DNA from: Candidatus Bathyarchaeota archaeon
GTDB lineage: Archaea; Thermoproteota; Bathyarchaeia; Bathyarchaeales; Bathyarchaeaceae
Direction of reading: 5' to 3'
Length of the DNA: 46,382 nt
Assembly (NCBI GenBank): GCA_029882515.1
Contig: JAOUKN010000003.1
Coordinates: 1 to 46,382, forward strand
The first letter of the stretch is position 1, and each line of letters begins with the position of its first letter. This document shows, piece by piece, positions 3,501-27,815 of the stretch. A model generated the notes under the pieces. That model searched no databases, was not told the origin of the DNA, and saw only the letters and a list, made by a program, of their open reading frames with translations. The translations under genes were made by a program, and so were the position numbers.

Positions 3501-6500
3501 CATATGAATGATTCACGGTAACGCCAGTTGCATTAGTGCTATCACCAAAATCCCAGAAATAACTAACAATTACGCCGTTAGGGTCATAGCTCGCAGAGGC
3601 GTTAAAGTAAATAACCTCATCAGTATAGACAATCTCTGCTGACTCAGTGAATAACGCAACGGGAGACGTACTCAAAACTATCTTAGTTGCGCTGACAGAT
3701 GTGGTCGCACCATCATTATCAGTAACGGTTAATGTAACAATGTACGTCCCTTCGTCTATAAATGCATGATCCAAAATGACATTAGAAGCGTTAGTGCCAT
3801 CGCCAAAGTCCCAGAAGTACGTAGCTAGATAGCCATCAGGATCATAACTGGCAGAAGCATCAAAGTGGATAACCTCTTCAGTATAAACCGTCTCTGCAGA
3901 CTCCGTGAAAGACGCAACGGGAGACCTATTCAAAACAGTTTTGGTTGAACTTGCCATGCCCGTTGCGCCATCGTCATCAATCAAGGTTAAGGTGACGAAG
4001 TAGTTCCCGTCATCTATATAGGCGTGTTCAACGATGATATCTGTCGCGTTGGTATCGTCACCGAAATCCCAGAAGTAACTTAGAATAACACCGTCAGAAT
4101 CATAGCTGGTGGAGGCGTCGAAGTGAATTACCACACCGGTGTATACTACTGTTGCAGACTCAGAAAATATAGATACAGGAGATCGGTTCAGGATTGTCTT
4201 GATTGAGGTGGCGGTGGCAGTTGCATCAGCATCATCAGTGACGGTTAGAGTTACAGTGTAGTTTCCATCGTCAGCATATGCATGACCCACACTCAGACCT
4301 GCAGCGTTAGTACCATCGCCGAAATCCCAGAAATAATCAACAATCACACCATCTGGATCATAGCTGCTGCTGGCGTCAAATGAGATCACCATGCCAGTAT
4401 AGGCAGCTGCTGCAGACTCAGTGAATATAGCTACAGGAGATGAGTTCCCAACTATCTTAGTAGCGATAGCTGACGCAGTTGCACCATCATCGTCAGTAAC
4501 CGTCAAGGTGACGATGTAGTTTCCCTTTTCAGCATACGAATGCTCCGTCGTCACGCCCATAGCGTTGATTCCATCACCAAAATCCCAGAAATAACTAACG
4601 ACATAACCATCTGGGTCATAACTTCCAGAAGCATTAAAGTAAATGACCTCACCAGTAAGCACATTTTCCGCAGACTCAGTGAATGAGGCAACAGGAGACC
4701 TGTTCGACACAATCTTAGTAGCGGTAGCCGACGCAGTTGCACCATCATCGTCAGTAACCGTCAAGGTTACCGTGTAGACTCCATCATCTACATAAGCATG
4801 ATCCACGATGGCACCAGTAGAGTTAGTGCTGTCTCCAAAGTCCCAGAGATAACTAATGATATAGTCATCTGGATCGTAGCTGGCAGAGGCATTAAACGTG
4901 ATAATCTCATCCGTTAGCACGGTCTCCGCAGTTTCAGTGAACAGTGCAACCGGTGGCCTATTCAGAACCGTCTTAGTTGAGGTAATGATGCCGGTTGCAC
5001 CATCGTCATCAGTCACAGTTAGGGTAACTGAGTACGTTCCGTCATCAACATAAGAATACTCTACAATCATGCCAGTACTGTTTGTTCCATCACCAAAATC
5101 CCAGAAATAACTAACGATTGTACCATCAGAATCATAACTGGCGCTAGCATTGAATGAAATAATCTCGTTGGTATAAACCGTTTCTGCGGACTCCGTGAAA
5201 GACGCAACGGGAGACCTATTCAAAACCGTCTTAGTAGCACTTGTTGAGGTAGTTACACCGTCGTCGTCAGTAACCGTTAGGATTACTGTATAAGTCCCAT
5301 CGTCTACGTATGCATGATCCACGATGACGCCAGTAGCGTTAGTGCCATCGCCAAAATCCCAGAAGTAACTAACAATGATGCCATCAGAATCGTAACTAGC
5401 TGACGCATTAAAGTAAATAACCTCGCCTGTAAACACCGTGGTCACAGACTCAGTGAACAATGCAACAGGAGACCTATTCAAGACTGTTTTAGTGGCCGAC
5501 GCTGAGACTGACGCTCCATCGTCATCTAGTATGGTTAGTGTGACTGTGTAGACTCCGTCGTCAGCGTACGAACGATCCACGACAACACCAGTGGCGTTAG
5601 TGCCATCGCCAAAATCCCAGAAGTAACTAACTATTGTGCCGTCTAAATCATAGCTATTTGACGCGTTTAATGTGATAACATCGCTTGTGTAGACGGTTTC
5701 CGCAGACTCAGTGAATGAGGCAACAGGAGACCTGTTCAAAACAGTTTTGGTTGAAGTATCCGTGGCAGTTGCATTATCGTCATCAGCAACGGTTAGGGTC
5801 GCCGTATAAATGCCATCGTCGGCAAATGCATGATCCACGATGACGCCAGTAGCGTTAGTGCCATCGCCAAAATCCCAGAAGTAACTAACTATTGCGCCGT
5901 CTGGATCATAACTGGCAGAAGCATCAAAGGAGATGATCTCATTTGTATAGACGGTTTCTGCAGATTCAGCAAATGATGCCACAGGAGACCTGTTTAGGAC
6001 CATCTTGGTCGCACTGGTCGATGCAGTTGCACCGTCGTCGTCTGTCACAGTTAGAGTTGCCGTGTAGACGCCATCACTCACATAAGCATGACCCACAATA
6101 ACACCCGTAGCGTTGGAACCATCGCCAAAATCCCAGAAGTAACTAACAATGGTGCCATCAGAATCGTAACTGGCAGAAGCATCAAAGGAGATAACCTCAT
6201 CAGTAGACAGAGTTGTTGCAGACTCGGTGAACGATGGTACTGGTGACCTGTTTAACACCGTTTTAGTGGATACTGCCGAGGCTGTGGCTCCATCATCATC
6301 CGTAACCGTCAGCGTCACGTTATATACACCGTCATCCACATACGAGTGAACAACAATCACACTGGTCGCGTTGGTACCGTCACCAAAGTCCCAGAAGTAA
6401 CTAACTATAACACCGTCGAAGTCGTAACTTGCAGATGCATTGAACATGATAGTCTCGCCGGTAAGCACGGTTTCTGCAGATTCAGTAAATGTGGCTACTG

Positions 6501-9500: not shown

Positions 9501-12500
9501 CAACAGAGCCGTCAAGATCCAAGCTACTGGAAGCATCAAAATGAATTGTCTCACCCGTATATACGGTTTCTGCGGATTCAGTAAACGAAGCTACTGGCGG
9601 TCTGTTTAGCACCGTTTTGGTTGAAGTTGTAGTATCTGTGGTGCCGTCATCATCCGTCACTGTTAAGGTTACGGTATAGTTTCCATCATCGGCATAAGCA
9701 AGATCAACCACGATGCCAGTAGCGTTAGAGCCATCTCCAAAATTCCAGAAGTAGCTGACAATCATACCATCAGGATCATAACTTTGAGAGGCATTGAAGT
9801 GAACAGTTTCTCCAGTGTTTATGGTTTCAGCGGACTCGGTGAAGGATGCCAATGGCGACCGATTCAGAACAAATTTAGTAGCGGATGCGGTATCCGTGGC
9901 GCCATCGTTATCTGTGATAGTTAGGGTCACAGAATAATCACCATCATCCACGTATGAGTATTCGACAATGGCTCCAGTAGCATTGGCGCCATCACCAAAA
10001 TCCCAGAAATAACTCACAATCAAGCCATCTGGATCATAGCTTGAAGAGGCATTGAATGTGATTATCTCTTGCGTAAGCACAGTTTCCGCAGATTCAGTGA
10101 ACAATGCTACTGGATGTCTGTTCAAGATCATCTTAGTCGCCGACACCAAGGCTGTGGCTCCATCGTCATCAGTAACGGTTAGGGTCACTGTGTAGTTTCC
10201 GTCGTCTGCATACGCATGGTTAACGGTAACGTCCGTGGCATTAGCTCCATCTCCCAAATCCCAGAAATAACTAAGAATCATGCCGTCGGGGTCATAGCTA
10301 TCGCTTGCGTTGAACGTAATAGCCTCACTGGTGTAGACGGTTTCAGCTGACTCGGTGAAGGACGCGACAGGAGGTCTGTTTAGAACCGTTTTGGTTGAGG
10401 TTGCAGCATCTGTAGCTCCATCATCATCAGTGACAGTTAGAGTCACTGCATAGATTCCATCATCAGCATACGCATGATCCACAATGATCCCAGTAGCATT
10501 GGCACCATCACCAAAATCCCAGAAATAACTGACTATCGAGCCATCTGAGTCGTAGGAGGCACTAGCGTTGAAGGTGACAGCCTCATTGGTGTAGATGGTC
10601 TCAGCCGACTCGGTAAACGACGCAACAGGAGATCTGTTCAGAACCGTTTTGGCTGCTGTAGCAGTGTCTGTGGCGCCGTCATCATCTGTAACGGTTAGGG
10701 TGACTGTGTAGTATCCATTATCGGCATAAGCATGATTTACAGTAACGCCAGTAGCGTTAGTTTCATCATCGAAGTTCCAGAAGTAACTAACAATAGTACC
10801 ATCTAGGTCATAACTAGCACTAGCGTTAAAGGATACTACCTCATCGGTGTAGACGGTTTCAGCCGACTCCGTGAAGGAAGCAACGGGAGATCTGTTTAGA
10901 ACTGTCTTGACTGAAGTAGCAGTATCAGTTGCGGCTTTGTCATCTGTAACCGTTAGAGTTATGGTATAAATGCCATCATCCACATACGTGCGTTCCACAA
11001 CAATACCAGTTGCGTTGGTGCCGTCGCCAAAATCCCACTCGTAGCTGACGATTATACCATCTGGGTCATAACTGCTACTGGCGTTAAACGTGATAGGCTC
11101 ATTCGTATAGACGGTTTCCACAGACTCAGTAAACGACGCAACAGGAGATTCATTCATGAGAATTGTCTTGGTCGACGATGCCGAATCTGTTGCTCCATCG
11201 TCATCTGTTATGGTTAGGGTCACGGTGAAAGTTCCGTTAGTAGCAAATGCGTGATTTACAGTGATCCCAGTGGCGTTCGCACCATCGCCAAAATCCCAGA
11301 AGTAACTGACAATCATGCCATCTGGGTCATAGCTGTTGGTAGCGTTAAAGGTGATAGGCTCGCCAACATACACGGTTTCCGCAGATTCTGTGAATATGGC
11401 TACTGGAGGTTTGTTTAAGACTGTCTTAGTTGCAGTAGCGAGGCCAGTTGCGCCGTCATTATCGGTAATTGTTAGAGTTACGATGTGAATGCCATCATCC
11501 AGATAAGTGTGATTTACGATAATGCCAGTAGCGTTGGTGCCGTCACCGAAATCCCAGAAATAACCAGCAATCGAACCGTCTAAGTCATAACTAACACTAG
11601 CGTTAAAGGATATCACCTCATCAACGTAGATCGTTTCAGCTGACTCGGTAAACGAAGCAACAGGAGGTCTGTTTAGAACCGTTTTGGTTGAGGTTGCAGC
11701 ATCTGTAGCTCCATCATCATCAGTGACAACTAGTGTCACCGTGTAGTTTCCGTCCTCAGGATAAGAGTGCTCCACAATGATCCCAGTAGCATTGGCACCA
11801 TCACCAAAATCCCAGAAATAACTGACTATCGAGCCATCTGAGTCGTAGGAGGCACTAGCGTTGAAGGTAATAGTCTCACTGGTGTAGATGGTCTCAGCCG
11901 ACTCGGTAAACGACGCAACAGGAGATCTGTTCAGAACCGTTTTGGTTGCTGTGGCGGTTTCTGTGGCGCCGTCATCATCGGTTATAGTAAGAGTTACTGT
12001 ATAATTGCCGTCGTCAACATAAGCATGATCAACCACAACGCCAATAGCGTTGGTGCTGTCACCAAAATCCCAGAAATAACTAACTATTGAACCGTCTGGA
12101 TCCGAGCTACCAGAAGCATCAAAATAAATGGTTTCACCCGTATACACGGTTTCAGCAGACTCGGTAAACGAAGCAACAGGAGGTCTGTTCAGAACCGTTT
12201 TGGTTGAAAATACGATGTTGGTTGCCCCATCATCATCAGTAACAGTCAAGGCAACCGTGTAATTACCATCATCAGCAAATGAGTGATCAGTCGTGACCCC
12301 AGTGGCGTTGGTACCATCACCAAAATCCCAGAAATAACCAACAATCGAACCATCAGGGTCATGACTATTAGTAGCGTTAAAGGTGATGGTTTCATTGGTG
12401 TAAACAGTCTGAGTCGATTCGGTAAAAGCAGCTATAGGTGGACGGTTTAACACGGTCTTGAACGCTATCGTGCTATCAGTAGCGCCGTCATCATCTGTCA

Positions 12501-14772
12501 CAGTAAGAGTTACTACATAATTGCCATTATTAATGTACGAGTGATCAACAGTAACTCCAGTGCCATTGCTTCCATCACCAAAGTCCCAGAAATAACTGAT
12601 AATGCTACCGTCAGGATCGTAACTCGTGGTAGCGTTGAAGTATATAGTCTCACTGGTATAGACGGTTTCCGTTGATTCTGTAAATGAGGCAATGGGGGGT
12701 CTGTTCAGAACGGTCTTACCGGCACTGGTCAAGTTAGTTGCCCCATCGTCATCATTGACTGTGAGGGTTACTGTGTAATTTCCCTCCTGAGGGTAAGAGT
12801 GCTCGGTTGTCACGCCAGTGGTGTTGGTGCCGTCACCGAAATCCCAGAAATAACTAATAATCACACCATCTGGGTCGTAACTTGCAGAGGCGTTGAAGTA
12901 GATGATCTCCTCGGTATAGATAGTTTCCACAGATTCGGTGAAAAACGCTACAGGAGGCCGATTCAACACGGTCTTGGTGGAGGTTGCGGTGTCAGTTGCG
13001 TCGTCGTCATCCGTTACGGTCAAAGCCACCGTATAAGTTCCGTCGTCAACATAAGCATGATCAACCACAACGCCAATAGCATTGATGCCGTCACCAAAAT
13101 CCCAGAGATAGCTATTAATAGTGCCATCGGGGTCATAGCTGTCTGACGCGTCAAAGTAAATGATTTCACCAGTGAGCGCGGTTGTTGCAGACTCGGTGAA
13201 TATGGCTGCTGGTGGCCTATTTAGAACAGATTTGGTGGCTGACGCCAAGTCAGTTGCTTCATCATCATCCGTAATGGTTAGGGTTATCGTGTAGTTTCCA
13301 TCATCAGCATATGAGTGGCCTACAGCTATACTTGTGGCGTTTGTTCCGTCACCAAAGTCCCAATAGTAGCTCACTATTGAACCGTCAAGATCATAGCTGT
13401 CACTTGCGTTGAACGTGATAGGCTCACTTGTATAGACGGTTTCTGCCGATTCAGTGAATGTTGCAATCGGAGGTCTATTAAGCACTGTGATGCCCTTAGA
13501 AGTGATGTCGGATAGTCCGTCGTTATCGGTCACAGTGATTGTAACTGTGTATGTTCCGTCATCAGTGTAGATGTGGGTCGTGATCTCGCCTGTAGCGTTG
13601 GTTCCGTCGCCGAAGTCCCAGAAATAAGTGACGATTGACCCGTCAGGGTCATAGCTGCTCGAAGCATTGAAAGTTACGGTTTCGCTAACATAAGGGTATT
13701 CCGGGGTGCAGGAGAAATTGGCTACCGGTGGTACTCCCCACGTACGTAGAAGCGTGCAATCTATTTCCCATGAATCTTGATAGGTATCCGCTGTTTCGGT
13801 TCCCCCTTTGAATCTTATGGTAAACGTGGAACTAATCAGATAGTCAGTAATTGAAATGTTGTTCCATCCACTTGATAGGTCATTGAACAGGCTTTGCCAC
13901 GTGAAACCGTCCCAAACATCGATTCGAAGATTTTCCGATCCCATAGCTCCTCCGAATATGCAAAGTTGCTCGTTGGTCAGATCGTGCGTTGCATTGGTCC
14001 ATTGAACCTCCAGATCGAGATCATAGTTAGTCATGAAATATGTTACCACAATCTTGACATAATCGCAATAAATTGTGCCTTTGTTAGTCTCATCTTGGAC
14101 AACGAAGTAAAGGTACCCGTTCGCGTTAATGTAATCGGTAATTCCAGTCGTGATGGTTGCCGTAAAGTTTTCGTCTTGTCCTCCTGCGGCGACGGTAGAG
14201 TTTTTGATATCCCAAGCAGAACCTGTAAAGTTCCATAGACGTAGATAAACAGTTGCTCCTGCACCAAGGGGAGACCCTTCGAATAAAAGGTCTAGCTGAG
14301 TAATACTGTTCTCACTGATGGTGAATTTGAAGTTGAAGTATGGTCTTCTGCCTGGAGAGCAAGGGCCAGAGGAATCCCTTACGTCATTGGAGGACTCTAT
14401 CAAGGTGTAGTCTGCTACTTCTGTCTGTCCCGTTATGTCTGGTCCATCAGCGGGTGGAGAACTTGCTTGGCCTTTGTAAGCCCACTTGGTTAAGCCTGCG
14501 CCAGCACTATAATCGTAGGTTGTTTCATCAATACCACCAGTATTTTCTTCGTTTAGAGCGTCATAAATTGAGTCTGGACCGTATTGTTGGTCTGTGAAGT
14601 TTGAGTGTGTGCCCCTGTCGGGGCTAGTGTCCACATCACTTGTGTTGTTATCGACATAATCATACTCGTCTGAAGGATTGGCATAAACAGGGAAAAGTCC
14701 AGCTGCTACGCTAACTGAAACGAGTAATCCTAGCAGAAGAAGGAGAAAGAGCCCTCTTCTTCTCCTACGCAA
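319..14772 (-). CDS. Giant surface protein (4817 aa): signal peptide, N-terminal beta-sandwich head, 51 PKD domains, C-terminal dockerin
   Basis: TTG start after a purine-rich SD; MRRRRRGLFLLLLLGLL signal peptide. 51 units carry the PKD core (FNAS.SYDPDG.I.SY.WDFGDG...H.Y...G.YTVTLTVTDDDG). The C-terminus has a duplicated DVNGDGKVR[IV]DD dockerin motif. Confidence 0.93.
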   Translation of the reverse strand: MRRRRRGLFLLLLLGLLVSVSVAAGLFPVYANPSDEYDYVDNNTSDVDTSPDRGTHSNFTDQQYGPDSIYDALNEENTGGIDETTYDYSAGAGLTKWAYKGQASSPPADGPDITGQTEVADYTLIESSNDVRDSSGPCSPGRRPYFNFKFTISENSITQLDLLFEGSPLGAGATVYLRLWNFTGSAWDIKNSTVAAGGQDENFTATITTGITDYINANGYLYFVVQDETNKGTIYCDYVKIVVTYFMTNYDLDLEVQWTNATHDLTNEQLCIFGGAMGSENLRIDVWDGFTWQSLFNDLSSGWNNISITDYLISSTFTIRFKGGTETADTYQDSWEIDCTLLRTWGVPPVANFSCTPEYPYVSETVTFNASSSYDPDGSIVTYFWDFGDGTNATGEITTHIYTDDGTYTVTITVTDNDGLSDITSKGITVLNRPPIATFTESAETVYTSEPITFNASDSYDLDGSIVSYYWDFGDGTNATSIAVGHSYADDGNYTITLTITDDDEATDLASATKSVLNRPPAAIFTESATTALTGEIIYFDASDSYDPDGTINSYLWDFGDGINAIGVVVDHAYVDDGTYTVALTVTDDDDATDTATSTKTVLNRPPVAFFTESVETIYTEEIIYFNASASYDPDGVIISYFWDFGDGTNTTGVTTEHSYPQEGNYTVTLTVNDDDGATNLTSAGKTVLNRPPIASFTESTETVYTSETIYFNATTSYDPDGSIISYFWDFGDGSNGTGVTVDHSYINNGNYVVTLTVTDDDGATDSTIAFKTVLNRPPIAAFTESTQTVYTNETITFNATNSHDPDGSIVGYFWDFGDGTNATGVTTDHSFADDGNYTVALTVTDDDGATNIVFSTKTVLNRPPVASFTESAETVYTGETIYFDASGSSDPDGSIVSYFWDFGDSTNAIGVVVDHAYVDDGNYTVTLTITDDDGATETATATKTVLNRSPVASFTESAETIYTSETITFNASASYDSDGSIVSYFWDFGDGANATGIIVEHSYPEDGNYTVTLVVTDDDGATDAATSTKTVLNRPPVASFTESAETIYVDEVISFNASVSYDLDGSIAGYFWDFGDGTNATGIIVNHTYLDDGIHIVTLTITDNDGATGLATATKTVLNKPPVAIFTESAETVYVGEPITFNATNSYDPDGMIVSYFWDFGDGANATGITVNHAFATNGTFTVTLTITDDDGATDSASSTKTILMNESPVASFTESVETVYTNEPITFNASSSYDPDGIIVSYEWDFGDGTNATGIVVERTYVDDGIYTITLTVTDDKAATDTATSVKTVLNRSPVASFTESAETVYTDEVVSFNASASYDLDGTIVSYFWNFDDETNATGVTVNHAYADNGYYTVTLTVTDDDGATDTATAAKTVLNRSPVASFTESAETIYTNEAVTFNASASYDSDGSIVSYFWDFGDGANATGIIVDHAYADDGIYAVTLTVTDDDGATDAATSTKTVLNRPPVASFTESAETVYTSEAITFNASDSYDPDGMILSYFWDLGDGANATDVTVNHAYADDGNYTVTLTVTDDDGATALVSATKMILNRHPVALFTESAETVLTQEIITFNASSSYDPDGLIVSYFWDFGDGANATGAIVEYSYVDDGDYSVTLTITDNDGATDTASATKFVLNRSPLASFTESAETINTGETVHFNASQSYDPDGMIVSYFWNFGDGSNATGIVVDLAYADDGNYTVTLTVTDDDGTTDTTTSTKTVLNRPPVASFTESAETVYTGETIHFDASSSLDLDGSVVSYFWDFGDGTNATEVTVDHAYVDDGIYTVTLTVTDDDGATNSDTAIKTVLNRPPLATFTESAEVVYINETIYLNASDSYDLDGTIVSYWWDFGDGTNATGVTTEHSYSQEGNYTVILTVTDDDGATNSTSANKTVLNRPPIAVFTESAETVYTGDTISFNASESYDLDGIIISYFWDFGDGTNNTSIVTDHAYADDGNYTVTLIITDNDGALASTSSIKTILNRPPLAFFTESAETVYTSVTITFDASTSYDPDGTVVSYFWDFGDGTNATGITVGHSYADDGNYMVTLTVTDNDGAIDTATAIKTILNRSPVAIFTESASVVYTGEVIYFDALQSHDPDGVIVGYFWDFGDGTNATGVTVEHAYTDDGNYVVTLTVTDDDGAAGTATSTKKVLNRPPVAFFTESAETVYTSVTITFNASDGYDPDGAIVSYFWDFGDSTNATGIIVNHAYSEDGTYTVTLTVTDDDDATASAGATKTVLNRPPVAIFTESAETVLVDEVIYFNASVSHDPDGSIVSYFWDFGDGTNATDVTTEHAYADNGVYTVTLTITDNDGATTSATATKNVEVTPPVAIFTESAVTVYTGEFIYFNASASYDSDGVLVSYFWDFGDGTNATGVTAEYAYTDNGNYTVILTVTDDDGVTNSATTTKTVLNRAPSASFSESAETVYTDEVITFNASASYDPDGSIATYFWDFGDGTNTTGIVTNHSFANNGNCTITLTVTDDDGATGVATATKTVLNRPPVASFTESTETVFTGEVISFNASASYDPDGIITSRFWDFGDNTNATGTIVDHTYSEDGNYTVTLTVTDDDGASSSSIATKTVLNNSPVASFTETAETVYSAEIIAFNASASYDPDGTVVSYFWDFGDGINTTGVIVDHAYADDGDYTVTLTVTDDDGASSSTSVIKTVLNRSPIASFTESTETMLVGEVIYFNASESYDPDGVVVSYFWDFGDGTNATGMTTEHGYADDGVYTATLTVTDDDGATASTSATKTVGITPPVATFTESAETVLTGETIMFNASASYDFDGVIVSYFWDFGDGTNATSVIVVHSYVDDGVYNVTLTVTDDDGATASAVSTKTVLNRSPVPSFTESATTLSTDEVISFDASASYDSDGTIVSYFWDFGDGSNATGVIVGHAYVSDGVYTATLTVTDDDGATASTSATKMVLNRSPVASFAESAETVYTNEIISFDASASYDPDGAIVSYFWDFGDGTNATGVIVDHAFADDGIYTATLTVADDDNATATDTSTKTVLNRSPVASFTESAETVYTSDVITLNASNSYDLDGTIVSYFWDFGDGTNATGVVVDRSYADDGVYTVTLTILDDDGASVSASATKTVLNRSPVALFTESVTTVFTGEVIYFNASASYDSDGIIVSYFWDFGDGTNATGVIVDHAYVDDGTYTVILTVTDDDGVTTSTSATKTVLNRSPVASFTESAETVYTNEIISFNASASYDSDGTIVSYFWDFGDGTNSTGMIVEYSYVDDGTYSVTLTVTDDDGATGIITSTKTVLNRPPVALFTETAETVLTDEIITFNASASYDPDDYIISYLWDFGDSTNSTGAIVDHAYVDDGVYTVTLTVTDDDGATASATATKIVSNRSPVASFTESAENVLTGEVIYFNASGSYDPDGYVVSYFWDFGDGINAMGVTTEHSYAEKGNYIVTLTVTDDDGATASAIATKIVGNSSPVAIFTESAAAAYTGMVISFDASSSYDPDGVIVDYFWDFGDGTNAAGLSVGHAYADDGNYTVTLTVTDDADATATATSIKTILNRSPVSIFSESATVVYTGVVIHFDASTSYDSDGVILSYFWDFGDDTNATDIIVEHAYIDDGNYFVTLTLIDDDGATGMASSTKTVLNRSPVASFTESAETVYTEEVIHFDASASYDPDGYLATYFWDFGDGTNASNVILDHAFIDEGTYIVTLTVTDNDGATTSVSATKIVLSTSPVALFTESAEIVYTDEVIYFNASASYDPNGVIVSYFWDFGDSTNATGVTVNHSYADDGIYTVILTVTDNEGETSSATSTKTILNRFPVASFTESAETVYTGESITFNASGSYDPDGVIVSCFWDFNDGTNATGVLAEHAYVNDGNYTVALTVTDDDGSVVAAVATKTILNRSPSASFIYSPSYPIVGEIVAFNASASYDLDGYVVDYAWNFGDNTTTTVATPIVSHTYAIEGDYTVTLTITDDDSATNNSTDVVMVRNYPTAAFTYSPDPPAKNQSIIFNASSSVPNGGIITSYQWDFGDGNITAVSGPILTHVYSSEGNYTVVLNVTDSEGLSDSLSQTIRVGLSPVSSFTYSPATLYVGDTATFNASASYDPDGSIISYLWDFGDGSLPVNETDPITIHVYVSDGVYSVALTVTDNEGINATNSTMITVLRAPVASFTYSPGFVLVGDVVTFDASESYDPNGYIMNYTWDFGDGNITATTSPITTHTYATAKTYVVILTVTDNEGFTDEKTKFVRIREYPTASFMCIPDYPIAGEDVTFDASSSTPNGGSIDNYHWDFGDGSLPVDTPDPILTYLYTTVGDYVVTLTVSDSEDLSDTTSTTVSVRDYPTATFQYSPTPPTAGLPVNFDGSSSTPGQGGSITDYAWDFGDGNITTTTTSMVVHVYAKAGNYTAVLTVTDSEGLSDLNVELITVEQASPVAAFVYSPDPAVKGGIVTFNASKSHDPDGQIWVYHWRFGDGETDLGWDSIVTHVYTALGQYNVTLTVEDLDENTDAISKIVTVIAGPHVDFTWEPQYPEINEVIAFDASESYDPTGSIVNYTWDFGDGNSTTVFESIITHQYGAPANYTVALNVTNDQGLWNIRQKLVSVIVTGPYVDFSWTPSDPYVNETVLFDASNSIGTVAEIANYTWHFGDGETITVVDPVVYYAYASEGNYTVALNVTDTRGFWSTASKIISILPLSGPTADFTWPYPCYPNRTITFDASTSTSGWNGTDHPPIVSYMWDFGDGNITTISVFAINHTYVQPGNYIVALTVTDELDQSDTVSYVVAVSEKLLGDVNGDGKVRIDDILAVALAFGSEPGDPNWDPDCDVNGDGKVRVDDILIAAQNFGQELP
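505..3156 (-). repeat. 10 more divergent PKD repeats (F-x-Y/W-S-P type) next to the dockerin
   Basis: These units begin with P.A.F.YSP or FTWEP, keep W[DNRH]FGD, and vary in length. One more unit of this type precedes the FTES block (~13480-13734). Confidence 0.85.
3157..13479 (-). repeat. 40 tandem 258-bp (86-aa) 'NRxPVAxFTESAET'-type PKD repeats
   Basis: The span is 10323 bp = 40 x 258 + 3 (one extra codon in KTILMNESP). WDFGD-coding AAAATCCCAG recurs at 258-bp spacing (e.g. 5611 and 5869). Confidence 0.92.
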
Positions 14773-15837: not shown

Positions 15838-16824
15838 CTAGCCGCTATAATTGCCAAAGGCTTGCGCCACAATCAGAACATCATCTACGCGGACTTTGCC
15901 GTCACCATTTATGTCAACACTAGGATCCCAGCCTTCGTCACCCTCGTTCATGCCGAAAGCCAAAGCCACAGCCAACACGTCATCTACCCGCACCTTACCG
16001 TCATCGTTCACATCACCGATTAGAATGACTTCAAACGTTGTGCTATTGGTTATGAACAGCATTTGATATTGTGAAACTGCTGAGATGCTGTAGTTGCCCG
16101 TGATCCCTCCTTCAGGGTTCGTACGAAATGTCAGATTGAATTCTCCTGGTGTACTTGTGCCGAAAGATTCTTCGGAGGTATAGGTTTCTCCTCCCCCTCC
16201 ACCAACAATGTTAAATCCAACTGACGCTTCAGGGCAGTAGGCGAATCCGTTTTCGTTCGGCCATCCATACAACGCACTGGTGTATATAAACGCGGGGCCG
16301 AGAGATATGTATTCAGAGATTGGTATAGGCCAGATGAAACGACGTTCCTCTTGTTCTGGTCCTAGCTCTGTTTGGAATAGTTTCTGCGCTATGAAGGGTA
16401 AACCGGTTGAGTCATAAAGATTCAACGTGACCGTCACATTCTCTGAGGTGAGCCCGTTGTTTTTCACGGTTATGTTTATTCCTAGACCTTCGCCTAGTGT
16501 GAAGCTCGATTTGGCGTTTCCAAATCGGTCACATGTGACCAATTCTGGGATCTCAACAACCCATGGACCCACAGGATTGTCCCCTGTCGGCAGGGTCCTT
16601 AATACGAACAGGTTCTCATTTGGATCGTCTATTTGGATTGCTACAAAGCCATCAGTTACAGGTGAACCATCCAGCATTAGGCTTCCATGGACCGAAACGC
16701 TTTCTCCAAGACCGTTTTCCTGGTCAACACTCAAAATGAGTTTCAAGCTCACGGCTTGTACAACTTGGACTGTTACGAGGATGACGAGGATAGTAAGGAA
16801 GGTGAACCACTGTTTCCGAGACAT
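15838..16824 (-). CDS. Secreted Ig-like domain protein with C-terminal dockerin
   Basis: Signal peptide, beta-rich body, and the C-terminal GDVNDDGKVRVDDVLAVALAFG...DINGDGKVRVDDVL. Confidence 0.85.
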   Translation of the reverse strand: MSRKQWFTFLTILVILVTVQVVQAVSLKLILSVDQENGLGESVSVHGSLMLDGSPVTDGFVAIQIDDPNENLFVLRTLPTGDNPVGPWVVEIPELVTCDRFGNAKSSFTLGEGLGINITVKNNGLTSENVTVTLNLYDSTGLPFIAQKLFQTELGPEQEERRFIWPIPISEYISLGPAFIYTSALYGWPNENGFAYCPEASVGFNIVGGGGGETYTSEESFGTSTPGEFNLTFRTNPEGGITGNYSISAVSQYQMLFITNSTTFEVILIGDVNDDGKVRVDDVLAVALAFGMNEGDEGWDPSVDINGDGKVRVDDVLIVAQAFGNYSG

Positions 16825-20646: not shown

Positions 20647-23145
20647 TTATGGCCAGCCGAAGTTGAGGGCGACAGCCAGAATGTCGTCGACTCGGATTTT
20701 GAAGTCGCCGTTGACGTCGCATCGTGGATCCCATCGCAAGAAGGCGACAAGGGGATCGGAACCGAAGGCGAGGGCAGCGGCTAAGACGTCGTCCACACGA
20801 ACTTTGTCGTCGATGTTGATGTCTTCGGGGATGGTGGCGTGGATGGTGTGCGTATACGTGTCCACGAGCAGCGTACCTTGCCAAACTTCCACGGTGATCT
20901 CTACGGTTCCTGCGCAGAGGGGATAGATGGTGTAGGGGCCGAGTTTCGCCCAGTCAAACACGTTGACTTGGGTGTCGTTTTCGACATGCTTTACTACGCC
21001 GTCTTCTTTGATCACTACGTCCACAGTCTTGTTGGCGAGTTCGCCGTCGACTTTGTAGCCATAGTTCGTAACCAAGACGTTGTATTCCACGGGATCTTCA
21101 ACGCAATCTGTCTCGTTCACGAAAGCAATGTAGGGTGCATCAACAACCGCCTTGATGGGGCCGTCCACCCAGTAAACGTCGCTTGAGTGGACTTCGCCGA
21201 TTCGGGTGGCGTCATCGTAGTAGTCGTAGACGAAGGCGCCAGCACCGACGTTGGCGGTTTGTGGGGCGTTGCTGTCACGTGGCGGCAGACCGGCATCCGG
21301 CCAAGCAGCGTAGTAGTCGAGGTACTGTGGGCGCACGGATGTGTACCAGAGTTCTTTGGCTTTGGCGGTCCAGTCTTGGTAATCCCACGCATCGGGGACC
21401 ATGGCGTCAAACGCGATTTTCTGTTCGTCGGGATTAACTGAGGATTGTTCAGCCATTTCGTCGAGGATGTAGTAGATGTGCTTCGGGAAGTAGGACGCGA
21501 TTTGTGGATAGTCTTCGTACCAGAGGCTGGTCGCATTGAAGTAGGTGATGAACTCGTAGGGACCTTTGGCTTCCGTGTAAACGACAGTTTTCCACGTGCT
21601 CTCGTATCTGCCAACCTCCCATTTCTTGAGCATGTTGAAGGCGAATTGGCAGTCGTCGGCCGTGAACTGGAAGGTTTTGCCGCCTGCACCGGTGTCCTGC
21701 CAGTAGACATCGTTTCGGAGGTAGTAGGTGACTTTCATGCCGTCCGGTATGTTCAACGCTGCCGATACGTCAGCGTTAACCGTGCTGTTGACGGCTTCAA
21801 TTTTGGATTTGTATGCTATCCAAGGTAAGTCGGTGCTGGGAACTGGTGGCGAAAACATCATTAATGGTTCGTGGAGTCCGTCTAAGAGCAACCATCCATA
21901 TAAGGTATTGTCGGTCCATGGGCTCAGTGTGTCAGGTTCGTCTCCCATGGCGCGTCGTATTAAGCCTTCGTAGGGCGGATTGTTATATACAGTGCCTGGA
22001 CCCCAGTGGACGCTTCGCCAGTTCAGGTAGCATTGGTCCGCGCCTGGACCCGGTGAGCCGATGAAGTTATCGAGGTCGGGATCCCACGTAGTAATACCTT
22101 GACCCGTGGTGACGGGGAAGAGGGGCATCCAGTCACTGACGAAGAGGCGTTGCATCTCCCAAACGGCGTCCAGCACAGTAGCTTCATCCAGATTGTACAT
22201 CATCGTCTCCAAGAGGTCATCCATTGTATCGTTGACGAAGCCACCAAAGTTCCATTGCCATGGACCGATGGTGCTTGAATGGTAATTGTCAAAACACCAG
22301 TCCGGAGTTAGTCCCAAACCAGTCAATCCGATGCCAATAAAGTCGAAGTCATGGAAATCCATTAGCTCGTAGACTAAGGTCATGAACTCTCGATCGGTCA
22401 AGATGAAGTTAGGACCGTTCGTGGCGCCTTTACTGTCAAAGAAGGCGTTCACTTGGCCAACGAATTGTTGGAGGATGTATTCCCATGAGAGGGTGCCCGT
22501 GCTGTACACGACTTCGAGGTCTCGTACGCGGCTGCCGTCAGGGTTAAGCAGATAACCCGCATCGTCGCCAGCCCCTAAGGTGTAATCGGCATCCATCAGA
22601 ATCTGCCAGGCGGTATCGTTGTCAGTGTCCGGCATGACGTCCACATTGTTGCACCAGCCGCCTTGAGCGGGCATTATCGCGGATCCTAGGGCGACGGTGA
22701 GGGAGTTCTGGTAGTACTCGTAGATGGCGTCAGCTTTGTCATCCATACCCCACACGTAGGATAGCGCCACTCTAAAGCGGCTATCGTTGAGGGGCTTACA
22801 CGTTTCTCCCGGCGTCCTTCCGGCAGGTCCACCGACCACGTGTGCACAGTATTCATCTCGGTTTTGTACTGCCATAAATCCAAAGGCAGATATAGGATCA
22901 AACGTCATGTTGTATCCCGCCGCGACACAAGCATCGATGAGTTCAGTGGTTCCCGGACCAGGCCTCATGTCAATTTCGTGGTCAACCAACAAGGCAGCGT
23001 TCATCTGTGCGGTGTCATCGTACACCTTGTACTGGATCTTTTGAATGTGCGGAAACGGATCGTTAATGTTGGTTGTCGCAGATACGCTTAAGAGCAATAT
23101 AAGAGCAAACAGCGTAGCAATTACAATAGGTTTTTTCGAAAGCAA
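20647..23145 (-). CDS. ABC transporter family-5 (peptide/nickel-type) substrate-binding protein with Ig-like domain and C-terminal dockerin
   Basis: TTG start at 23145 after AGGAG, then a signal peptide. SBP5 motifs PLNDSRFRVAL, EPDTLSP, YLRNDVYWQD, FTADDCQFAF and GAGAF. C-terminal EDINIDDKVRVDD...CDVNGDFKIRVDD. Confidence 0.85.
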   Translation of the reverse strand: MLSKKPIVIATLFALILLLSVSATTNINDPFPHIQKIQYKVYDDTAQMNAALLVDHEIDMRPGPGTTELIDACVAAGYNMTFDPISAFGFMAVQNRDEYCAHVVGGPAGRTPGETCKPLNDSRFRVALSYVWGMDDKADAIYEYYQNSLTVALGSAIMPAQGGWCNNVDVMPDTDNDTAWQILMDADYTLGAGDDAGYLLNPDGSRVRDLEVVYSTGTLSWEYILQQFVGQVNAFFDSKGATNGPNFILTDREFMTLVYELMDFHDFDFIGIGLTGLGLTPDWCFDNYHSSTIGPWQWNFGGFVNDTMDDLLETMMYNLDEATVLDAVWEMQRLFVSDWMPLFPVTTGQGITTWDPDLDNFIGSPGPGADQCYLNWRSVHWGPGTVYNNPPYEGLIRRAMGDEPDTLSPWTDNTLYGWLLLDGLHEPLMMFSPPVPSTDLPWIAYKSKIEAVNSTVNADVSAALNIPDGMKVTYYLRNDVYWQDTGAGGKTFQFTADDCQFAFNMLKKWEVGRYESTWKTVVYTEAKGPYEFITYFNATSLWYEDYPQIASYFPKHIYYILDEMAEQSSVNPDEQKIAFDAMVPDAWDYQDWTAKAKELWYTSVRPQYLDYYAAWPDAGLPPRDSNAPQTANVGAGAFVYDYYDDATRIGEVHSSDVYWVDGPIKAVVDAPYIAFVNETDCVEDPVEYNVLVTNYGYKVDGELANKTVDVVIKEDGVVKHVENDTQVNVFDWAKLGPYTIYPLCAGTVEITVEVWQGTLLVDTYTHTIHATIPEDINIDDKVRVDDVLAAALAFGSDPLVAFLRWDPRCDVNGDFKIRVDDILAVALNFGWP

Positions 23146-23313
23146 ATACTCCTTTCTCCTATTTTTTCTATACTGCAAGAATATTGAGGGAGCTTAAAAG
23201 GCTTATGGAGGATTTTTACATTTTTTATTCAAGCTCAGATGTTAAAGACTAGCATTACGAAGACCCCATTAGACTTAAATATTCAAGAGGCCTCATCAAA
23301 TTGAGGAGGTTTT
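23146..23313. promoter_or_regulatory. Divergent promoter region between the SBP gene and dppBCDF
   Basis: TATA-like TTTTAAG on the minus strand (~23193-23199) and TTAAATA on the plus strand (~23275-23281); GAGGAGG SD before the dppB ATG. Confidence 0.5.
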
Positions 23314-24318
23314 ATGGGATTCAGAGGTTATTTCTTAAACAGGATAGCAATAGCAGTAGCAGTCCTCTTCATCGTATTAGTATTGAACTTCTTGATTTTC
23401 CGTGTGTTCAGCCCCTATGATCCCACTGATATGATAATAGACCCAGATTTCGAGCAAGCAACGAAGGATAGGCTCAGAGCTGAATGGGGATTGGATCGCC
23501 CTCTTTTTCCCGATCAATTCGTCTTGTACCTGAAAAATCTGCTCACCTGGAACTATGGGCGGCAATTTGACCAATCAAAAAGTCTTATAGCACCGCAGAT
23601 GGCTTGGCGCCTCCGAAACACACTTTTGCTTCTTGGAACAGCAACGATAGGAGTCATACTCGTAGGAATCCCGCTCGGAATCTTGGCAGGGTCAAGAAGA
23701 GGAAGCAAAACAGACATAACGATCATAGGCGCAGGGCTCTTTACATGGGGTGTTCCAACCTTTTTCGTTCAACTGATTTGGTTGTTCGTCTTTTCTGCGA
23801 CCTGGAACTCCGTTTTTGGGGCGCCACTTATCCCTAGAAGTGGAGTCGTCGGCTTGCCTCCACCAGAAGGACTACTTGAAACATTAAAGGATGTTGCATG
23901 GCATGCAATTTCTCCCATATGTACCTTGATCATTGCAGGTTTTGGATCCTGGGCATTGTACACTAGAAACATGATGGTCGATGCGCTCACAGAAGACTAT
24001 ATTCAGACGGCTCGTGCTAAAGGAGTGAAGGGCAGAGATGTGTTGTTTCGGCATGCCTTTCGAAGCATACTTCCCCCTGTCGCCACTATGGTGGCTTTGG
24101 CGATTCCGGGAATAGTCACGGGTGCCATAATAACTGAGAGTCTGTTCGGTTGGCCAGGGATTGGAGCATGGTACATAAATGCTCTGATGAACCGCAATCA
24201 TCCAGTGGCTCAAGCAGTCCTCTACAACTATGCAGTTTTGATGATAGGGGCCAACCTTGTCACAGATCTGCTTTATGGGTTCCTAGATCCTAGAATACGT
24301 GTAGGCCAAAGAAGGTAA
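23314..24318 (+). CDS. dppB: Oligopeptide/dipeptide ABC permease (DppB/OppB family)
   Basis: WGLDRPL..QFVLYL, the EAA loop DYIQTARAKG and DLLYGFLDPRIR; hydrophobic helices. Confidence 0.92.
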   Translation: MGFRGYFLNRIAIAVAVLFIVLVLNFLIFRVFSPYDPTDMIIDPDFEQATKDRLRAEWGLDRPLFPDQFVLYLKNLLTWNYGRQFDQSKSLIAPQMAWRLRNTLLLLGTATIGVILVGIPLGILAGSRRGSKTDITIIGAGLFTWGVPTFFVQLIWLFVFSATWNSVFGAPLIPRSGVVGLPPPEGLLETLKDVAWHAISPICTLIIAGFGSWALYTRNMMVDALTEDYIQTARAKGVKGRDVLFRHAFRSILPPVATMVALAIPGIVTGAIITESLFGWPGIGAWYINALMNRNHPVAQAVLYNYAVLMIGANLVTDLLYGFLDPRIRVGQRR

Positions 24319-24333
24319 AGGAGGCTCAACAGA

Positions 24334-25854
24334 GTGGCCCTGTTTCGCAAGGAAAAAAGAACAATATACGTGAGAAAGATCAAGAATTTTTGGGAAGAGT
24401 TCAGTCACAACAGAATCGGTCTTGCCGGTATTGGTATCTTAATATTCTACGTAATGGTAGCTGTCTTCACTCCCTATATTTCTCCGATGAGACCCACAAG
24501 CCAAGAGTATAATCCTCCTCGCTCGGCTGCGATGTATGCAATGCCCGAATGGGTGCGTATCTTCCCTCAGTTTCAGGATTTACCTCCGTCTTTTGAGGTC
24601 CGATTATTAGAGAACGTGACGCTAGTGAACTCGACCGTAACTGACCGTGCAACACTCCAATTTGACAAAGAAGCGCTCAACATTACTTTCCATGCAGACG
24701 CTGAGGAAGAGGAAGGAAGCATTCTTCTTCATCTGACTGCATTTAGTTACGTCTATGCTCCTCCATCGGACTTCAAGCTCACAACGGTCTACTACGAAAC
24801 AGGTAACCAAATACGGTATGAAATAGACTTGTTCTTGACGACTGATCAACAAAATGATATATGGGACGAATGGCTGGAAGATCCAACAAGAGCTGTCTTA
24901 TATACTAATGACAGAAAAGTGACTCGCTACCCAAGTGTTGACAAAAAGATTAGAAGAAGCTTGTATGCTGGGTTAATGAATGAACAGCTGTTCGCTTGGC
25001 AATACCCGAATGACGCCGTACAATACGCATTTCTCCATCCGTCAGAGATGCTACTCTCCAAAAAAGGAAGTTACGACTTCTATCTTGAGATAAAATTCAA
25101 CTCGCTTGCGTCTACTTCAACATGTAACATACATATTGACACTGCTGAAGTCAAGTTCTTTGGTGATGTTTGGGGATTATTAGGAAGTGACAGAGTTGGT
25201 CACGACGTTTGGGCACAACTAATTTATGGAGTTAGAATCTCCTTGATCGTTGGATCTCTTGCAGCGGTTCTCTCATCAGTCCTTGGGATTTCGTTCGGAG
25301 TGATAGCAGGATATTCTGGAGGGAGAACCGATCAAATAATAATGCGAGGTGTAGACGTGCTTCTCTGCTTACCAGTACTTCCTATCTTGCTTATATTATC
25401 GTCATACTGGAGCTTCAACGTGTATTACGTTATCCTTCTTATAGCCATTTTTGGATGGCAAGGTTTATCAAGAATAGTCAGATCCAAAGTTCTCTCCCTT
25501 AAAGAAGTGCCTTTCATAGAAAGTGCAAGAGCTGCGGGCGCAACCTCAGGATACATTATGACGCGCCACATTATACCAAATGTCCTCCCAGTAGTTATGG
25601 CAGCCATGGTTCTCGCTGTACCCGGCGCTATTCTAACCGAAGCCGCGTTAAGCTTTCTAGGATTCGGGGATCCCTCCGTGCCAACTTGGGGAAGAATGCT
25701 CTACCGATCCCGAACGCAAGGAGGTTTTGAGAGTTTAGCTTGGTGGTACGTCATACCGCCTGGGCTTGCAATCACCTTCTTATGTTTGGCTTTTGTGTTC
25801 ATTGGACATGCCTTAGACGAAATCGTGAACCCGAGACTTAGGAGACGACGCTAA
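24334..25854 (+). CDS. dppC: Oligopeptide/dipeptide ABC permease (DppC/OppC family) with large extracytoplasmic insertion
   Basis: LLGSDRVGHDVW..LIYGVRISL, FIESARAAGA, EAALSFLGFG and ALDEIVNPRLR. A soluble insert of about 220 aa follows TM1. Confidence 0.9.
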   Translation: MALFRKEKRTIYVRKIKNFWEEFSHNRIGLAGIGILIFYVMVAVFTPYISPMRPTSQEYNPPRSAAMYAMPEWVRIFPQFQDLPPSFEVRLLENVTLVNSTVTDRATLQFDKEALNITFHADAEEEEGSILLHLTAFSYVYAPPSDFKLTTVYYETGNQIRYEIDLFLTTDQQNDIWDEWLEDPTRAVLYTNDRKVTRYPSVDKKIRRSLYAGLMNEQLFAWQYPNDAVQYAFLHPSEMLLSKKGSYDFYLEIKFNSLASTSTCNIHIDTAEVKFFGDVWGLLGSDRVGHDVWAQLIYGVRISLIVGSLAAVLSSVLGISFGVIAGYSGGRTDQIIMRGVDVLLCLPVLPILLILSSYWSFNVYYVILLIAIFGWQGLSRIVRSKVLSLKEVPFIESARAAGATSGYIMTRHIIPNVLPVVMAAMVLAVPGAILTEAALSFLGFGDPSVPTWGRMLYRSRTQGGFESLAWWYVIPPGLAITFLCLAFVFIGHALDEIVNPRLRRRR

Positions 25855-26817
25855 ATGACGCTTCTCAAAGTTGAGAACTTGACCATGTACTGGGAAGTAT
25901 TACGAGGATACGTTAAGGCAGTAGACGACGTCAGCTTTAGCCTTGAAAAGGGACATTCTCTTGGACTCGCTGGCGAATCCGGATGCGGAAAAACAAGTAC
26001 TGCCTTGGCAATTCTAAGACTGTTGCCATATAATGGGCGGATAATGGGTGGAAACATCATCTTCAACGGAGAAGAACTGCTACAAATGAATGACCAAAGG
26101 TTTCAGAAGGAAATTCGATGGAAAAAAATGTCTGTAATTTTTCAGGGAGCCATGAATGCGTTACATCCAATTCAAAGAATTGGAGACCAGATAACTGAAG
26201 CTATTCTTCTCCATGAGAACATAAGCAAGAAGGAAGCAGTGGACAGAGCTAGTAAGCTACTCGATCTGGTTGGAATCGGAGCGGAGAGAATCGATCGATA
26301 CCCCCATGAACTCAGCGGAGGACTAAAACAACGAACTGTAATTGCCATGGCCCTAGCATGTAATCCTGACCTTATCTTCGCAGACGAACCGACAACCGCA
26401 TTAGACGTCATTGTTCAAGCCCAAGTGCTAAAAGTGATCAAGGAACTCCAGCATAAATTGAATCTCTCTATGATCATGATTTCACATGACCTCGCCATGA
26501 TCGCTGAAACCTGCGATGAGATCGCAATTATGTATGCAGGAAAAATAGTGGAATACGGAGATGTCACAACCATCTACAAAAAGCCGTTGCACCCCTACAC
26601 ACAGAAACTCATAAAAGCCTTCCCCAGTGTCATAGGACCCAAAACGGAACTCGCAACCATACATGGATTTCCACCCGACCTGCTGAAGCCTCCACCAGGA
26701 TGCAGATTCCATCCAAGATGCCCATACGCCATGGAAATTTGTAGAAAGAAAGACCCGCAATCAGCAAAAGTAGATGGCAAATATCATTCAGTAGCCTGTT
26801 ACCTAATTGGAGACTAG
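25855..26817 (+). CDS. dppD: Oligopeptide ABC ATPase (DppD)
   Basis: Walker A GESGCGKT, LSGG, DEPTTALD, HPYT and the C-terminal CRFHPRC..C..C cluster. It abuts the dppC stop (TAAATG). Confidence 0.93.
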   Translation: MTLLKVENLTMYWEVLRGYVKAVDDVSFSLEKGHSLGLAGESGCGKTSTALAILRLLPYNGRIMGGNIIFNGEELLQMNDQRFQKEIRWKKMSVIFQGAMNALHPIQRIGDQITEAILLHENISKKEAVDRASKLLDLVGIGAERIDRYPHELSGGLKQRTVIAMALACNPDLIFADEPTTALDVIVQAQVLKVIKELQHKLNLSMIMISHDLAMIAETCDEIAIMYAGKIVEYGDVTTIYKKPLHPYTQKLIKAFPSVIGPKTELATIHGFPPDLLKPPPGCRFHPRCPYAMEICRKKDPQSAKVDGKYHSVACYLIGD

Positions 26818-26822
26818 AACTC

Positions 26823-27815
26823 ATGGAAGAAAGCGTTGTAGAAATTCACGATCTGAAAAAATATTTTCCTATAAAGTTAGGTTTCCTCAAGAGTTTAACA
26901 ATTAAGTTAGTTCCAGAGATCCGTGCTGTTGACGGCGTAAGCTTCAAAATAGCCCCTCGGGAAGTTTTTGGTCTCGCTGGAGAAAGTGGCTGCGGAAAAA
27001 CAACTACCGGGAGATGCATACTCAGGCTAATTGAACCCACAAACGGTAAAATCTTGTTTAAAGGGACAGATTTAACGGCTCTTGCTTCAGACAGAATGAC
27101 CAAACTCCGAAGGAAAATGCAGATTATATTTCAGGACCCCTACGAATCTTTGAACCCACGAATGAGCGTATATGACATCATAGCAGAGCCGTTAACTATC
27201 CAAGGAATCGCGACAAGTGCAGATCAAATCACAAAGCTGGTAAGTACTGCTTTGGAGGAATTGGATCTCAATCCACCAGAGGAATTCATGTACAGATTTC
27301 CCCACGAGCTCAGCGGTGGTCAAAGGCAAAGAGTGGCCATAGCAAGAGCCTTCGTACTTAAGCCCGAGTTCATTGTTGCCGACGAACCCGTATCTATGCT
27401 TGACGCTTCCATTAGATCCGAAGTTCTAAATCTCATATTAGGCCTGATAGAGGAAACCCAGTGCGCATTTCTTTACATCACGCACGACATCGCACTGACA
27501 CGGCACATTTGTAATCGCATTGCAATCATGTATCTAGGAACAATCACGGAGAAAGGACCAACTGAGAAGATGATTCAGAACCCTTTACACCCATATACTG
27601 AAGCGTTAATTGCTGCAGTACCAGTCCCTGATCCAACAGCCCGTAGAACTGAAATTGTAATTAAAGGTGAGGTTCCCAGCCCTATCAACCCACCCCCAGG
27701 ATGCAGATTTCATCCAAGATGTCCATATGCAAAACAAAAATGCCAAGAAGAAGAACCACAACTGGTAAATGCCACAAAAGACAGATATGTCGCATGTCAC
27801 TTCCCACTTGGATAG
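26823..27815 (+). CDS. dppF: Oligopeptide ABC ATPase (DppF)
   Basis: GESGCGKT, LSGGQRQR, DEPVSMLD, HPYT and PSPINPPPGCRFHPRC. Confidence 0.93.
   Translation: MEESVVEIHDLKKYFPIKLGFLKSLTIKLVPEIRAVDGVSFKIAPREVFGLAGESGCGKTTTGRCILRLIEPTNGKILFKGTDLTALASDRMTKLRRKMQIIFQDPYESLNPRMSVYDIIAEPLTIQGIATSADQITKLVSTALEELDLNPPEEFMYRFPHELSGGQRQRVAIARAFVLKPEFIVADEPVSMLDASIRSEVLNLILGLIEETQCAFLYITHDIALTRHICNRIAIMYLGTITEKGPTEKMIQNPLHPYTEALIAAVPVPDPTARRTEIVIKGEVPSPINPPPGCRFHPRCPYAKQKCQEEEPQLVNATKDRYVACHFPLG

Follow-up and report, generated by a model that had tools for sequence, protein, structure and literature searches.

The window analysed here, i.e. all 46,382 nucleotides of contig JAOUKN010000003.1 (C95) from an uncultured sediment archaeon (Candidatus Bathyarchaeota), contains a gene for an ATP-binding cassette (ABC) substrate-binding protein that appears to end in a dockerin module, at the place where other binding proteins of the same genome carry a membrane helix. 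The gene stands head-to-head with dppBCDF, dppB starting on the opposite strand 135 bp from the open reading frame (ORF) of the binding protein. The next gene downstream, after a gap of 186 bp, encodes a protein with three cohesin modules, and the same strand continues with genes for a cohesin-dockerin adaptor, a dockerin protein, a CBM9-like protein and a giant protein with 51 PKD repeats (Table 1). An earlier annotation made from the letters alone (the sequence-only reading) had correctly described the head-to-head position and the triple-cohesin neighbour and had proposed that the dockerin retains the binding protein at the cell in place of a lipid or transmembrane anchor. The host genome is metagenome-assembled (2.2 Mb, 88% complete) and its relatives carry the names Candidatus Bathyarchaeota or Bathyarchaeia. 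An origin of the host among the anaerobic methane-oxidising (ANME) archaea was considered and rejected on account of these relatives and because MCR_alpha/mcrA gave no match in the 88%-complete genome.

Table 1. Features of the binding-protein locus, in window coordinates
Feature	Position	Strand	Basis
Gene for dockerin-tailed, circularly permuted family-5 substrate-binding protein	20647..23178	-	ORF call, Pfam, AF2
Sec-type signal peptide, residues 12-34, predicted cleavage between SVSA and TT, without lipobox Cys	23077..23145	-	sequence, homologues
Binding fold, residues 35-665, circularly permuted	21184..23076	-	Pfam/DppA segment order, VIA
Ig-like beta-sandwich immediately preceding the dockerin, residues 675-782	20833..21156	-	AF2
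Predicted dockerin module, residues 785-843, two repeats, each a D-x-N-x-D...D loop plus helix	20650..20826	-	HMM/profile, AF2
dppB-type permease gene	23314..24318	+	Pfam
dppC-type permease gene, 506 aa	24334..25854	+	Pfam
Extracytoplasmic insert of DppC, ~230 residues, between membrane helices 1 and 2	about 24481-25203	+	
dppD ATPase gene, then dppF ATPase gene	25855-26817; 26823-27815	+	
Secreted triple-cohesin protein, 779 aa	18121..20460	-	Pfam, profile against solved cohesins
Cohesin + dockerin adaptor protein, 344 aa	16922..17956	-	Pfam, lineage HMM
Dockerin-bearing protein, 328 aa, N-terminal part without known family	15838..16824	-	lineage HMM
Giant protein, 4817 aa, 51 PKD repeats + C-terminal dockerin	319..14772	-	end of same-strand cluster

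The ORF of the binding protein opens with TTG and codes for 843 residues. The database gene call begins 11 codons later, at a TTG (position 23145) that follows a GGAG motif, and this second codon is likely the start of the gene, giving a product of 832 residues. Pfam assigns the protein to SBP_bac_5 (score 56.3 bits, cut-off 32.4, E 3.9e-15), and an AlphaFold2 (AF2) model built from a 48-sequence alignment (mean predicted local distance difference test, pLDDT, 90.2; predicted template modelling score, pTM, 0.87) divides it into three parts: a large binding fold, a beta-sandwich and a small two-helix module. All of the top 50 Foldseek matches are of the OppA/DppA/NikA class (best EppA, AppA, OppA, NikA and DppA), with E values down to 3e-14.

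The segments of the binding fold do not follow the canonical order of the family. Pfam and DppA alignments equate protein residues 43-243 with profile positions 146-312 and residues ~434-612 with positions 2-146. In structure, residues 35-396 of the model fall on the C-terminal ~300 residues of solved OppA/DppA chains (by VIA, 209-520 of 1xoc_A with Z 26.2, a root-mean-square deviation of 4.9 and 308 aligned residues, and 201-507 of 1dpp_A with Z 25.1); the structural coverage is that of residues 35-396, and residues 434-612, which correspond to the N-terminal part of these chains, were assigned from sequence. The protein is therefore a circular permutant of the family fold, a secreted binding protein of OppA/DppA type with its chain segments in changed order. 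The permuted order is also found in all 13 orthologues tested by Pfam. The beta-sandwich that follows is made of strands only (block pLDDT 85-98) and has no Pfam match.

As to the ligand, peptides are the family default, with oligosaccharides or metal chelates as possible alternatives. Orphan dockerin-tailed copies in related genomes (L001/L015, on contig C10 of G191, and L014) lie near genes of peptide and amino-acid metabolism, which include an M42 aminopeptidase, glycine-cleavage P proteins and a Pab87-type serine peptidase. This gene company is a weak hint towards peptide ligands.

The N-terminus reads as a cleavable export signal. It comprises K15-K16, 16 hydrophobic residues and SVSA followed by TT, and Cys is absent from residues 1-40. 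Seven close homologues also have small residues at -3 and -1, and the same type of signal peptide is present in 16/16 orthologues, two of which have a Cys, neither at the lipobox position; we infer cleavage between SVSA and TT. At the other end there is no hydrophobic helix (the highest 19-residue hydropathy over the last 45 residues is 0.99), and NCBIfam finds no PGF-CTERM or PEF-CTERM match in the protein. Both termini had been described in this way by the sequence-only reading, as had the Ig-like domain and the dockerin at the C-terminus, and all of this stands. Two points needed correction, namely the chain order of the binding fold, which is circularly permuted, and the dockerin, which appears to be a divergent one that escapes Pfam.

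Archaeal binding proteins of the oligopeptide class, as known from Sulfolobus, combine a Sec signal peptide with a C-terminal membrane helix. The present genome encodes four canonical, non-permuted SBP_bac_5 proteins (contigs C72, C65, C155 and C165), and the three whose N-terminus is on the contig have a signal peptide of the same type as the permuted protein (3/3). All four carry a hydrophobic helix with a basic tail at the C-terminus. Such a helix is therefore the normal anchor of this organism, and the dockerin sits in its place.

Dockerins are built from a tandem pair of repeats. Each repeat has a 12-residue Ca-binding loop, with D or N at positions 1, 3 and 5 and D at position 12, followed by a helix. 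The last 59 residues of the binding protein follow this pattern, with the loops DINIDDKVRVDD and DVNGDFKIRVDD, kept in homologues, and helices at 795-803 and 830-838 in the AF2 model. In both loops, homologues of 37-68% identity conserve the Ca ligands at positions 1, 3, 5 and 12, and they also keep both helices. A profile of six tail sequences run against the PDB returned solved dockerins as its top seven matches (best 2y3n_B, E 1.3e-5, over profile positions 2-57 of 60, i.e. both repeats), and X-module-dockerin structures (2b59_B, 4u3s_B, 4wi0_B, 3kcp_A and 5g5d_B) are among the matches.

The tail is moreover 52-62% identical to 21 of the 29 other dockerin modules of the genome, Pfam-positive ones included. 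A lineage-specific hidden Markov model (HMM), built from 69 related tails whose seeds were picked for likeness to this one, scores the tail at 90.7 bits, within the range of the genome's Pfam-positive dockerins, and matches 36 ORFs of the genome at E<=0.001, among them all 10 that pass Pfam. Because the seeds resembled this tail, the recovery of the Pfam-positive set is the real control of the model. On this evidence, the tail is a dockerin divergent enough to escape Pfam; orthologous tails reach the Dockerin_1 cut-off (31.3, 32.1, 25.3 and 23.0 bits).

Candidate partners are encoded next door and elsewhere in the genome. The 779-residue neighbour has a Pfam cohesin match (PF00963, 45.2 bits against a cut-off of 24.1), and its family profile matches solved cohesins at residues 45-183 (E 1.5e-6), 214-349 (E 0.013, weak) and 365-502 (E 3.6e-12). 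The family has 128 database matches, many of full length; its members carry a signal peptide, and their C-terminal domain is strongly conserved. Another cohesin protein of the same genome (C216_2426_3838) combines a signal peptide with a C-terminal membrane helix, and membrane-anchored cohesin proteins also occur in related clusters (L051:1313-2329 and L054:3489-4994). Besides these, the genome has cohesin modules on the 344-residue adaptor, on a C191 protein and on an adaptor encoded on contig C216. In several loci, cohesin genes directly follow the binding-protein gene.

The C-terminal domain of the triple-cohesin protein (about residues 545-779, window 18124-18825) is the most conserved part of this large Bathyarchaeia family and ends in the conserved motif ...AAGPE..IYILP. 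It has no Pfam or NCBIfam match, and an atlas look-up gave weak Ig-like/MG2 leads only (scores <=0.90) with no sign of an anchor. This domain may hold the anchor-less scaffold in place.

Other proteins of the genome would share these cohesins. Among 20 dockerin ORFs scanned with Pfam (L023-L042), two are Peripla_BP_6 (LivK-type) binding proteins, nine match the NosD model and two are PQQ propellers; right-handed beta-helix models cover eight of the nine NosD ORFs and one further ORF, bringing NosD/beta-helix proteins to 10/20. Pfam found no obvious peptidase or glycosidase among the 20, which gives the assembly little resemblance to a degradative cellulosome. The LivK-type proteins that end in dockerins lie on contigs C228 (L023) and C36 (L031), one of them with two dockerins, and point to an independent recruitment of the tail by an unrelated receptor family. 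A second permuted family-5 copy on contig C191 (L021:12665-14341) is identical in 536/536 residues to its part of the database protein P0007, which continues as dockerin-cohesin-dockerin; the C191 copy is divergent to another cohesin gene. Such a protein would be a receptor that is itself a socket, and P0004 shows the same kind of fusion, with a cohesin and a second dockerin. Since most dockerins of the genome belong to one sequence type, several binding proteins, namely the two permuted family-5 copies and the two LivK-type ones, probably share the same sockets. The 51-PKD protein, for its part, has the look of a fibre or an adhesin, and its own dockerin would fit the same cohesins.

Whether a dockerin tail is found where cohesins are found was followed in the order to which the window belongs, sampled as 201 genomes. 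The binding protein (P0001) matches 15/201 of them at E<=1e-10. Pfam cohesin matches occur in 97/201, including all of the P0001-positive genomes (15/15). Two sets of loci were then compared. The first comprises 16 loci fetched around genes for long DppC proteins, together with the window and two earlier loci; in 16 of these 19 an ORF of 680-985 residues with a C-terminal dockerin lies beside dppB-dppC, mostly head-to-head, and all 13 newly Pfam-tested adjacent ORFs are SBP_bac_5 proteins in permuted order. The second set consists of 20 further loci taken in list order regardless of cohesins. Here a permuted binding protein is adjacent in 14/17 assessable loci, and its tail is a dockerin by HMM in six, dockerin-like by eye only in two, a membrane helix in one and cut off at contig ends in five. 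The arrangement of the gene, head-to-head with dppBCDF and before cohesin genes, is conserved across the order.

In genomes without a cohesin match (Pfam, E<=0.001), the adjacent binding proteins that could be assessed all end in a membrane helix (3/3; G049 with two loci and G162 with one); another two loci of such genomes lack an adjacent binding protein and three contigs are too short. These three are the helix-tailed orthologues observed beside the same type of permease. Complete dockerin-tailed orthologues by this permease number 22 by HMM and two by eye, all of them in cohesin-positive genomes. A co-occurrence of these fusions with cohesin genes, which the sequence-only reading had named as a check on its own proposal, is therefore what was found, and the two kinds of tail seem to be complementary with respect to the presence of cohesins.

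A family search, exhaustive in itself, gave 457 matches at E<=0.001, of which the best 150 cluster representatives were used. Of these 150, 80 match the binding core over at least 250 residues: 54 end in a dockerin, five have an internal dockerin, nine end in a membrane helix, eight are truncated and four have another tail. A maximum-likelihood tree of 49 cores (43 with dockerin, six with helix) requires at least two tail swaps, a single swap occurring in 0/200 bootstrap trees; the tree has no known root and does not give the direction of the change.

The permease also has a distinctive feature. DppC of the window has 506 residues, as compared with 290-310 in the four other DppC homologues of the genome, all without the insert, and three of these four share contigs with helix-anchored canonical binding proteins. 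In related genomes the insert reaches ~430 residues. Pfam finds nothing in this ectodomain, which is matched by only three database proteins, and the AF2 model of DppC (from a 5-sequence alignment) has a mean pLDDT of 51, with the ectodomain below 50. DppC relatives at E<=1e-55 occur in 50/201 genomes, nearly always within a reading frame of 470-860 residues, and cohesins are present in 40/50 of these genomes versus 57/151 of the others. A tie between the long ectodomain and the dockerin was considered and dropped, as orthologues with a membrane helix also lie beside a long DppC (L066, L083 and L085). The long DppC instead travels with the permuted binding-protein family as a whole, whatever the tail.

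Short contigs from four metatranscriptome libraries of four studies match the genes of the locus partially, at 95-100% identity. They are a weak hint of expression, without bearing on strand or level, and gene stretches that lack such cover carry no meaning.

Taken together, the comparative evidence favours, with a probability of roughly 0.7, that the protein is the receptor of an Opp/Dpp-type ABC importer and is held at the surface not by a membrane anchor but by a cohesin-dockerin plug. After export and cleavage of the signal peptide, the dockerin would bind a cohesin module, presumably in a Ca2+-dependent manner. The socket could be a membrane-anchored cohesin protein such as the one on contig C216, used directly, or the path to it could lead over products of the neighbouring genes (the cohesin-dockerin adaptors and the secreted triple-cohesin protein). 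In either case, the plug would keep the receptor within reach of the permease.

Several points weigh against this reading. The binding of dockerin to cohesin is here presumed from the comparative evidence. Pfam Dockerin_1 (PF00404) misses the tail even when the tail is searched alone (E<=10), and the tail is absent from the 29 matches in the genome at E<=1; its first loop has I and D where the other dockerins of the genome have G. The triple-cohesin neighbour has a signal peptide and, like the other members of its family, neither a membrane helix nor a dockerin in its sequence, so that plugging into the neighbour alone would retain nothing. The tail census is biased towards dockerins because the query itself had one, and the first set of loci because 13 of the 16 were fetched for a cohesin match on the same contig. 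The pairing of helix tails with a lack of cohesins rests on two genomes; related genomes are not independent samples, the numbers are small and the assemblies incomplete. In four of the first nine loci there are orphan copies with neither permease nor cohesin within about 8 kb. Finally, one relative, P0079, has an internal dockerin (597-655) as well as a C-terminal membrane helix, and since it carries both, the two tails are not strictly alternatives. P0079 could represent an intermediate stage, or it could indicate that the dockerin is able to do more than retain.

The first alternative is that the binding protein is no transport receptor and instead captures or senses ligands as part of a larger extracellular assembly built on cohesins and dockerins, which would also include the 51-PKD fibre, the CBM9-like protein and the NosD/beta-helix proteins; its adjacency to dppBCDF in some genomes would then be secondary. 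Such a role would fit the position of the gene, first in a same-strand run of cohesin and dockerin genes, as well as the orphan copies without a nearby permease and the fusions with a cohesin and a second dockerin (P0004, and P0007 as the second copy of the genome). However, the permuted gene lies beside dppB and the long dppC in 16/19 and 14/17 assessable loci, mostly divergent and right by dppB, and helix-tailed relatives are found in the same position. In Opp systems, additional binding proteins encoded as orphans are nothing unusual. On balance we consider this role unlikely.

A second alternative leaves the N-terminal hydrophobic stretch uncleaved as a signal anchor, with the dockerin recruiting cohesin-bearing partners to a receptor that is already fixed. 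The N-terminus of the model is of low confidence (pLDDT below 50 at 1-22 and 28-32, with a helix at 20-29) and P0079 unites a dockerin with a membrane helix, both of which would be compatible with it. It is nevertheless improbable, as the hydrophobic core is short, at 16 residues, with small residues following it at -3/-1 in 8/8 aligned homologues and 16/16 orthologues. Moreover, the canonical proteins of the same genome pair the same N-terminus with a separate C-terminal anchor (3/3), which would be redundant if the N-terminus were retained in the membrane. That the tail is a decayed, non-binding dockerin and the protein moves freely under the S-layer, like the periplasmic binding proteins of diderm bacteria, is the least probable view, for although Pfam misses the tail and the first loop departs from the genome consensus at two positions, the Ca-ligand positions and both helices are kept among homologues, the lineage HMM score lies in the Pfam-positive range and orthologous tails reach the Pfam cut-off.

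Beyond the retention of a single receptor by its plug, the paralogues, the orphan copies and the fusion of binding protein and cohesin may hint at an exchange and clustering of receptors. A wider and clearly tentative proposal, which we hold to be doubtful as a whole, is that a main role of the cohesin-dockerin system, long unexplained in archaea, would in Bathyarchaeia be that of a plug-in rack for interchangeable ABC receptors of at least two unrelated families, on membrane-anchored sockets beside a dedicated permease, with the cohesin-bearing receptors chaining and the DppC ectodomain having co-evolved with the permuted receptor as its landing site. If it were true, the cell could change or multiply its receptors and leave the permease untouched.

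The textbook means by which monoderm cells and archaea retain their transport receptors are lipid anchors, membrane helices and pilin-type signals. The non-covalent plug, if true, would be a fourth and reversible mode of retention and would give a concrete role to non-cellulosomal archaeal cohesin-dockerin pairs. The partners are defined, namely a single dockerin tail, a single permease and some ten cohesin modules of one genome, and the complementary distribution of the tails, a kind of natural experiment, makes a bench test of the hypothesis worthwhile. Engineers of binding proteins, and those who study receptor docking on Opp/Dpp permeases, may also find the permuted fold and the long DppC ectodomain of interest.

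Compared with the helix-anchored archaeal binding proteins of the oligopeptide class, the protein belongs to the same Pfam family, has the same kind of signal peptide and shows the same gene link to dppBC-type permeases. It differs in having a beta-sandwich and a predicted dockerin in place of the helix and basic tail, in its permuted fold and in a DppC partner of 506 rather than 290-310 residues. Circular permutation has a precedent among ABC binding proteins in Tp0684 (MglB-2) of Treponema pallidum (PMC4990184), the one case that a search for such proteins found, where the ABC binding fold is likewise kept with a changed chain order. Tp0684, as that source presents it, is of the glucose/galactose class, a bacterial lipoprotein and without a dockerin.

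The C-terminal part resembles the X-module-dockerin dyads of cellulosomes, in which an Ig-like module also stands directly before a C-terminal two-repeat dockerin, partner cohesins are borne on anchoring proteins and the pair is proposed to mediate surface attachment. Unlike in these dyads, the cargo is a transport receptor rather than an enzyme scaffold and the anchors are C-terminal membrane helices rather than SLH or sortase attachments; the beta-sandwich is likened to the X-module by position, and binding is presumed.

The closest relatives in design are found in ANME archaea. Chadwick et al. 2022 (PMC9012536) report that dockerin-bearing NikA/OppA binding proteins are common there, that TroA ones occur too and that multi-cohesin proteins have up to five cohesins; they call the role of non-cellulosomal archaeal cohesin-dockerin pairs unclear and call for experiments. 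Timmers et al. 2017 counted cohesin/dockerin domains, and PMC8542988 deals with dockerin enzymes, without a dockerin binding protein; in the literature on dockerins with binding proteins or with Bathyarchaeota, no treatment beyond Chadwick et al. 2022 was found. The sequence-only reading had presented the dockerin as another mode of retention. This part of it is borne out in that the dockerin sits where relatives carry a membrane anchor and the tails match the presence of cohesins, but the mode is not newly seen here (Chadwick et al. 2022, PMC9012536). In both lineages a NikA/OppA-type archaeal binding protein with a dockerin coexists with multi-cohesin proteins in the genome, both known from genome annotation, and unlike the ANME proteins the present one comes from a host within Bathyarchaeia in which mcrA was not found. 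The main-text section of Chadwick et al. 2022 (PMC9012536) used for this comparison gives the matter one sentence, without an anchor comparison, synteny, mechanism, a permuted fold or a long DppC ectodomain. By that account, the tether design described here appears as a further lineage of a published kind, to which the present locus adds the permuted fold, the dedicated long-DppC permease and the complementary distribution of dockerin and helix tails.

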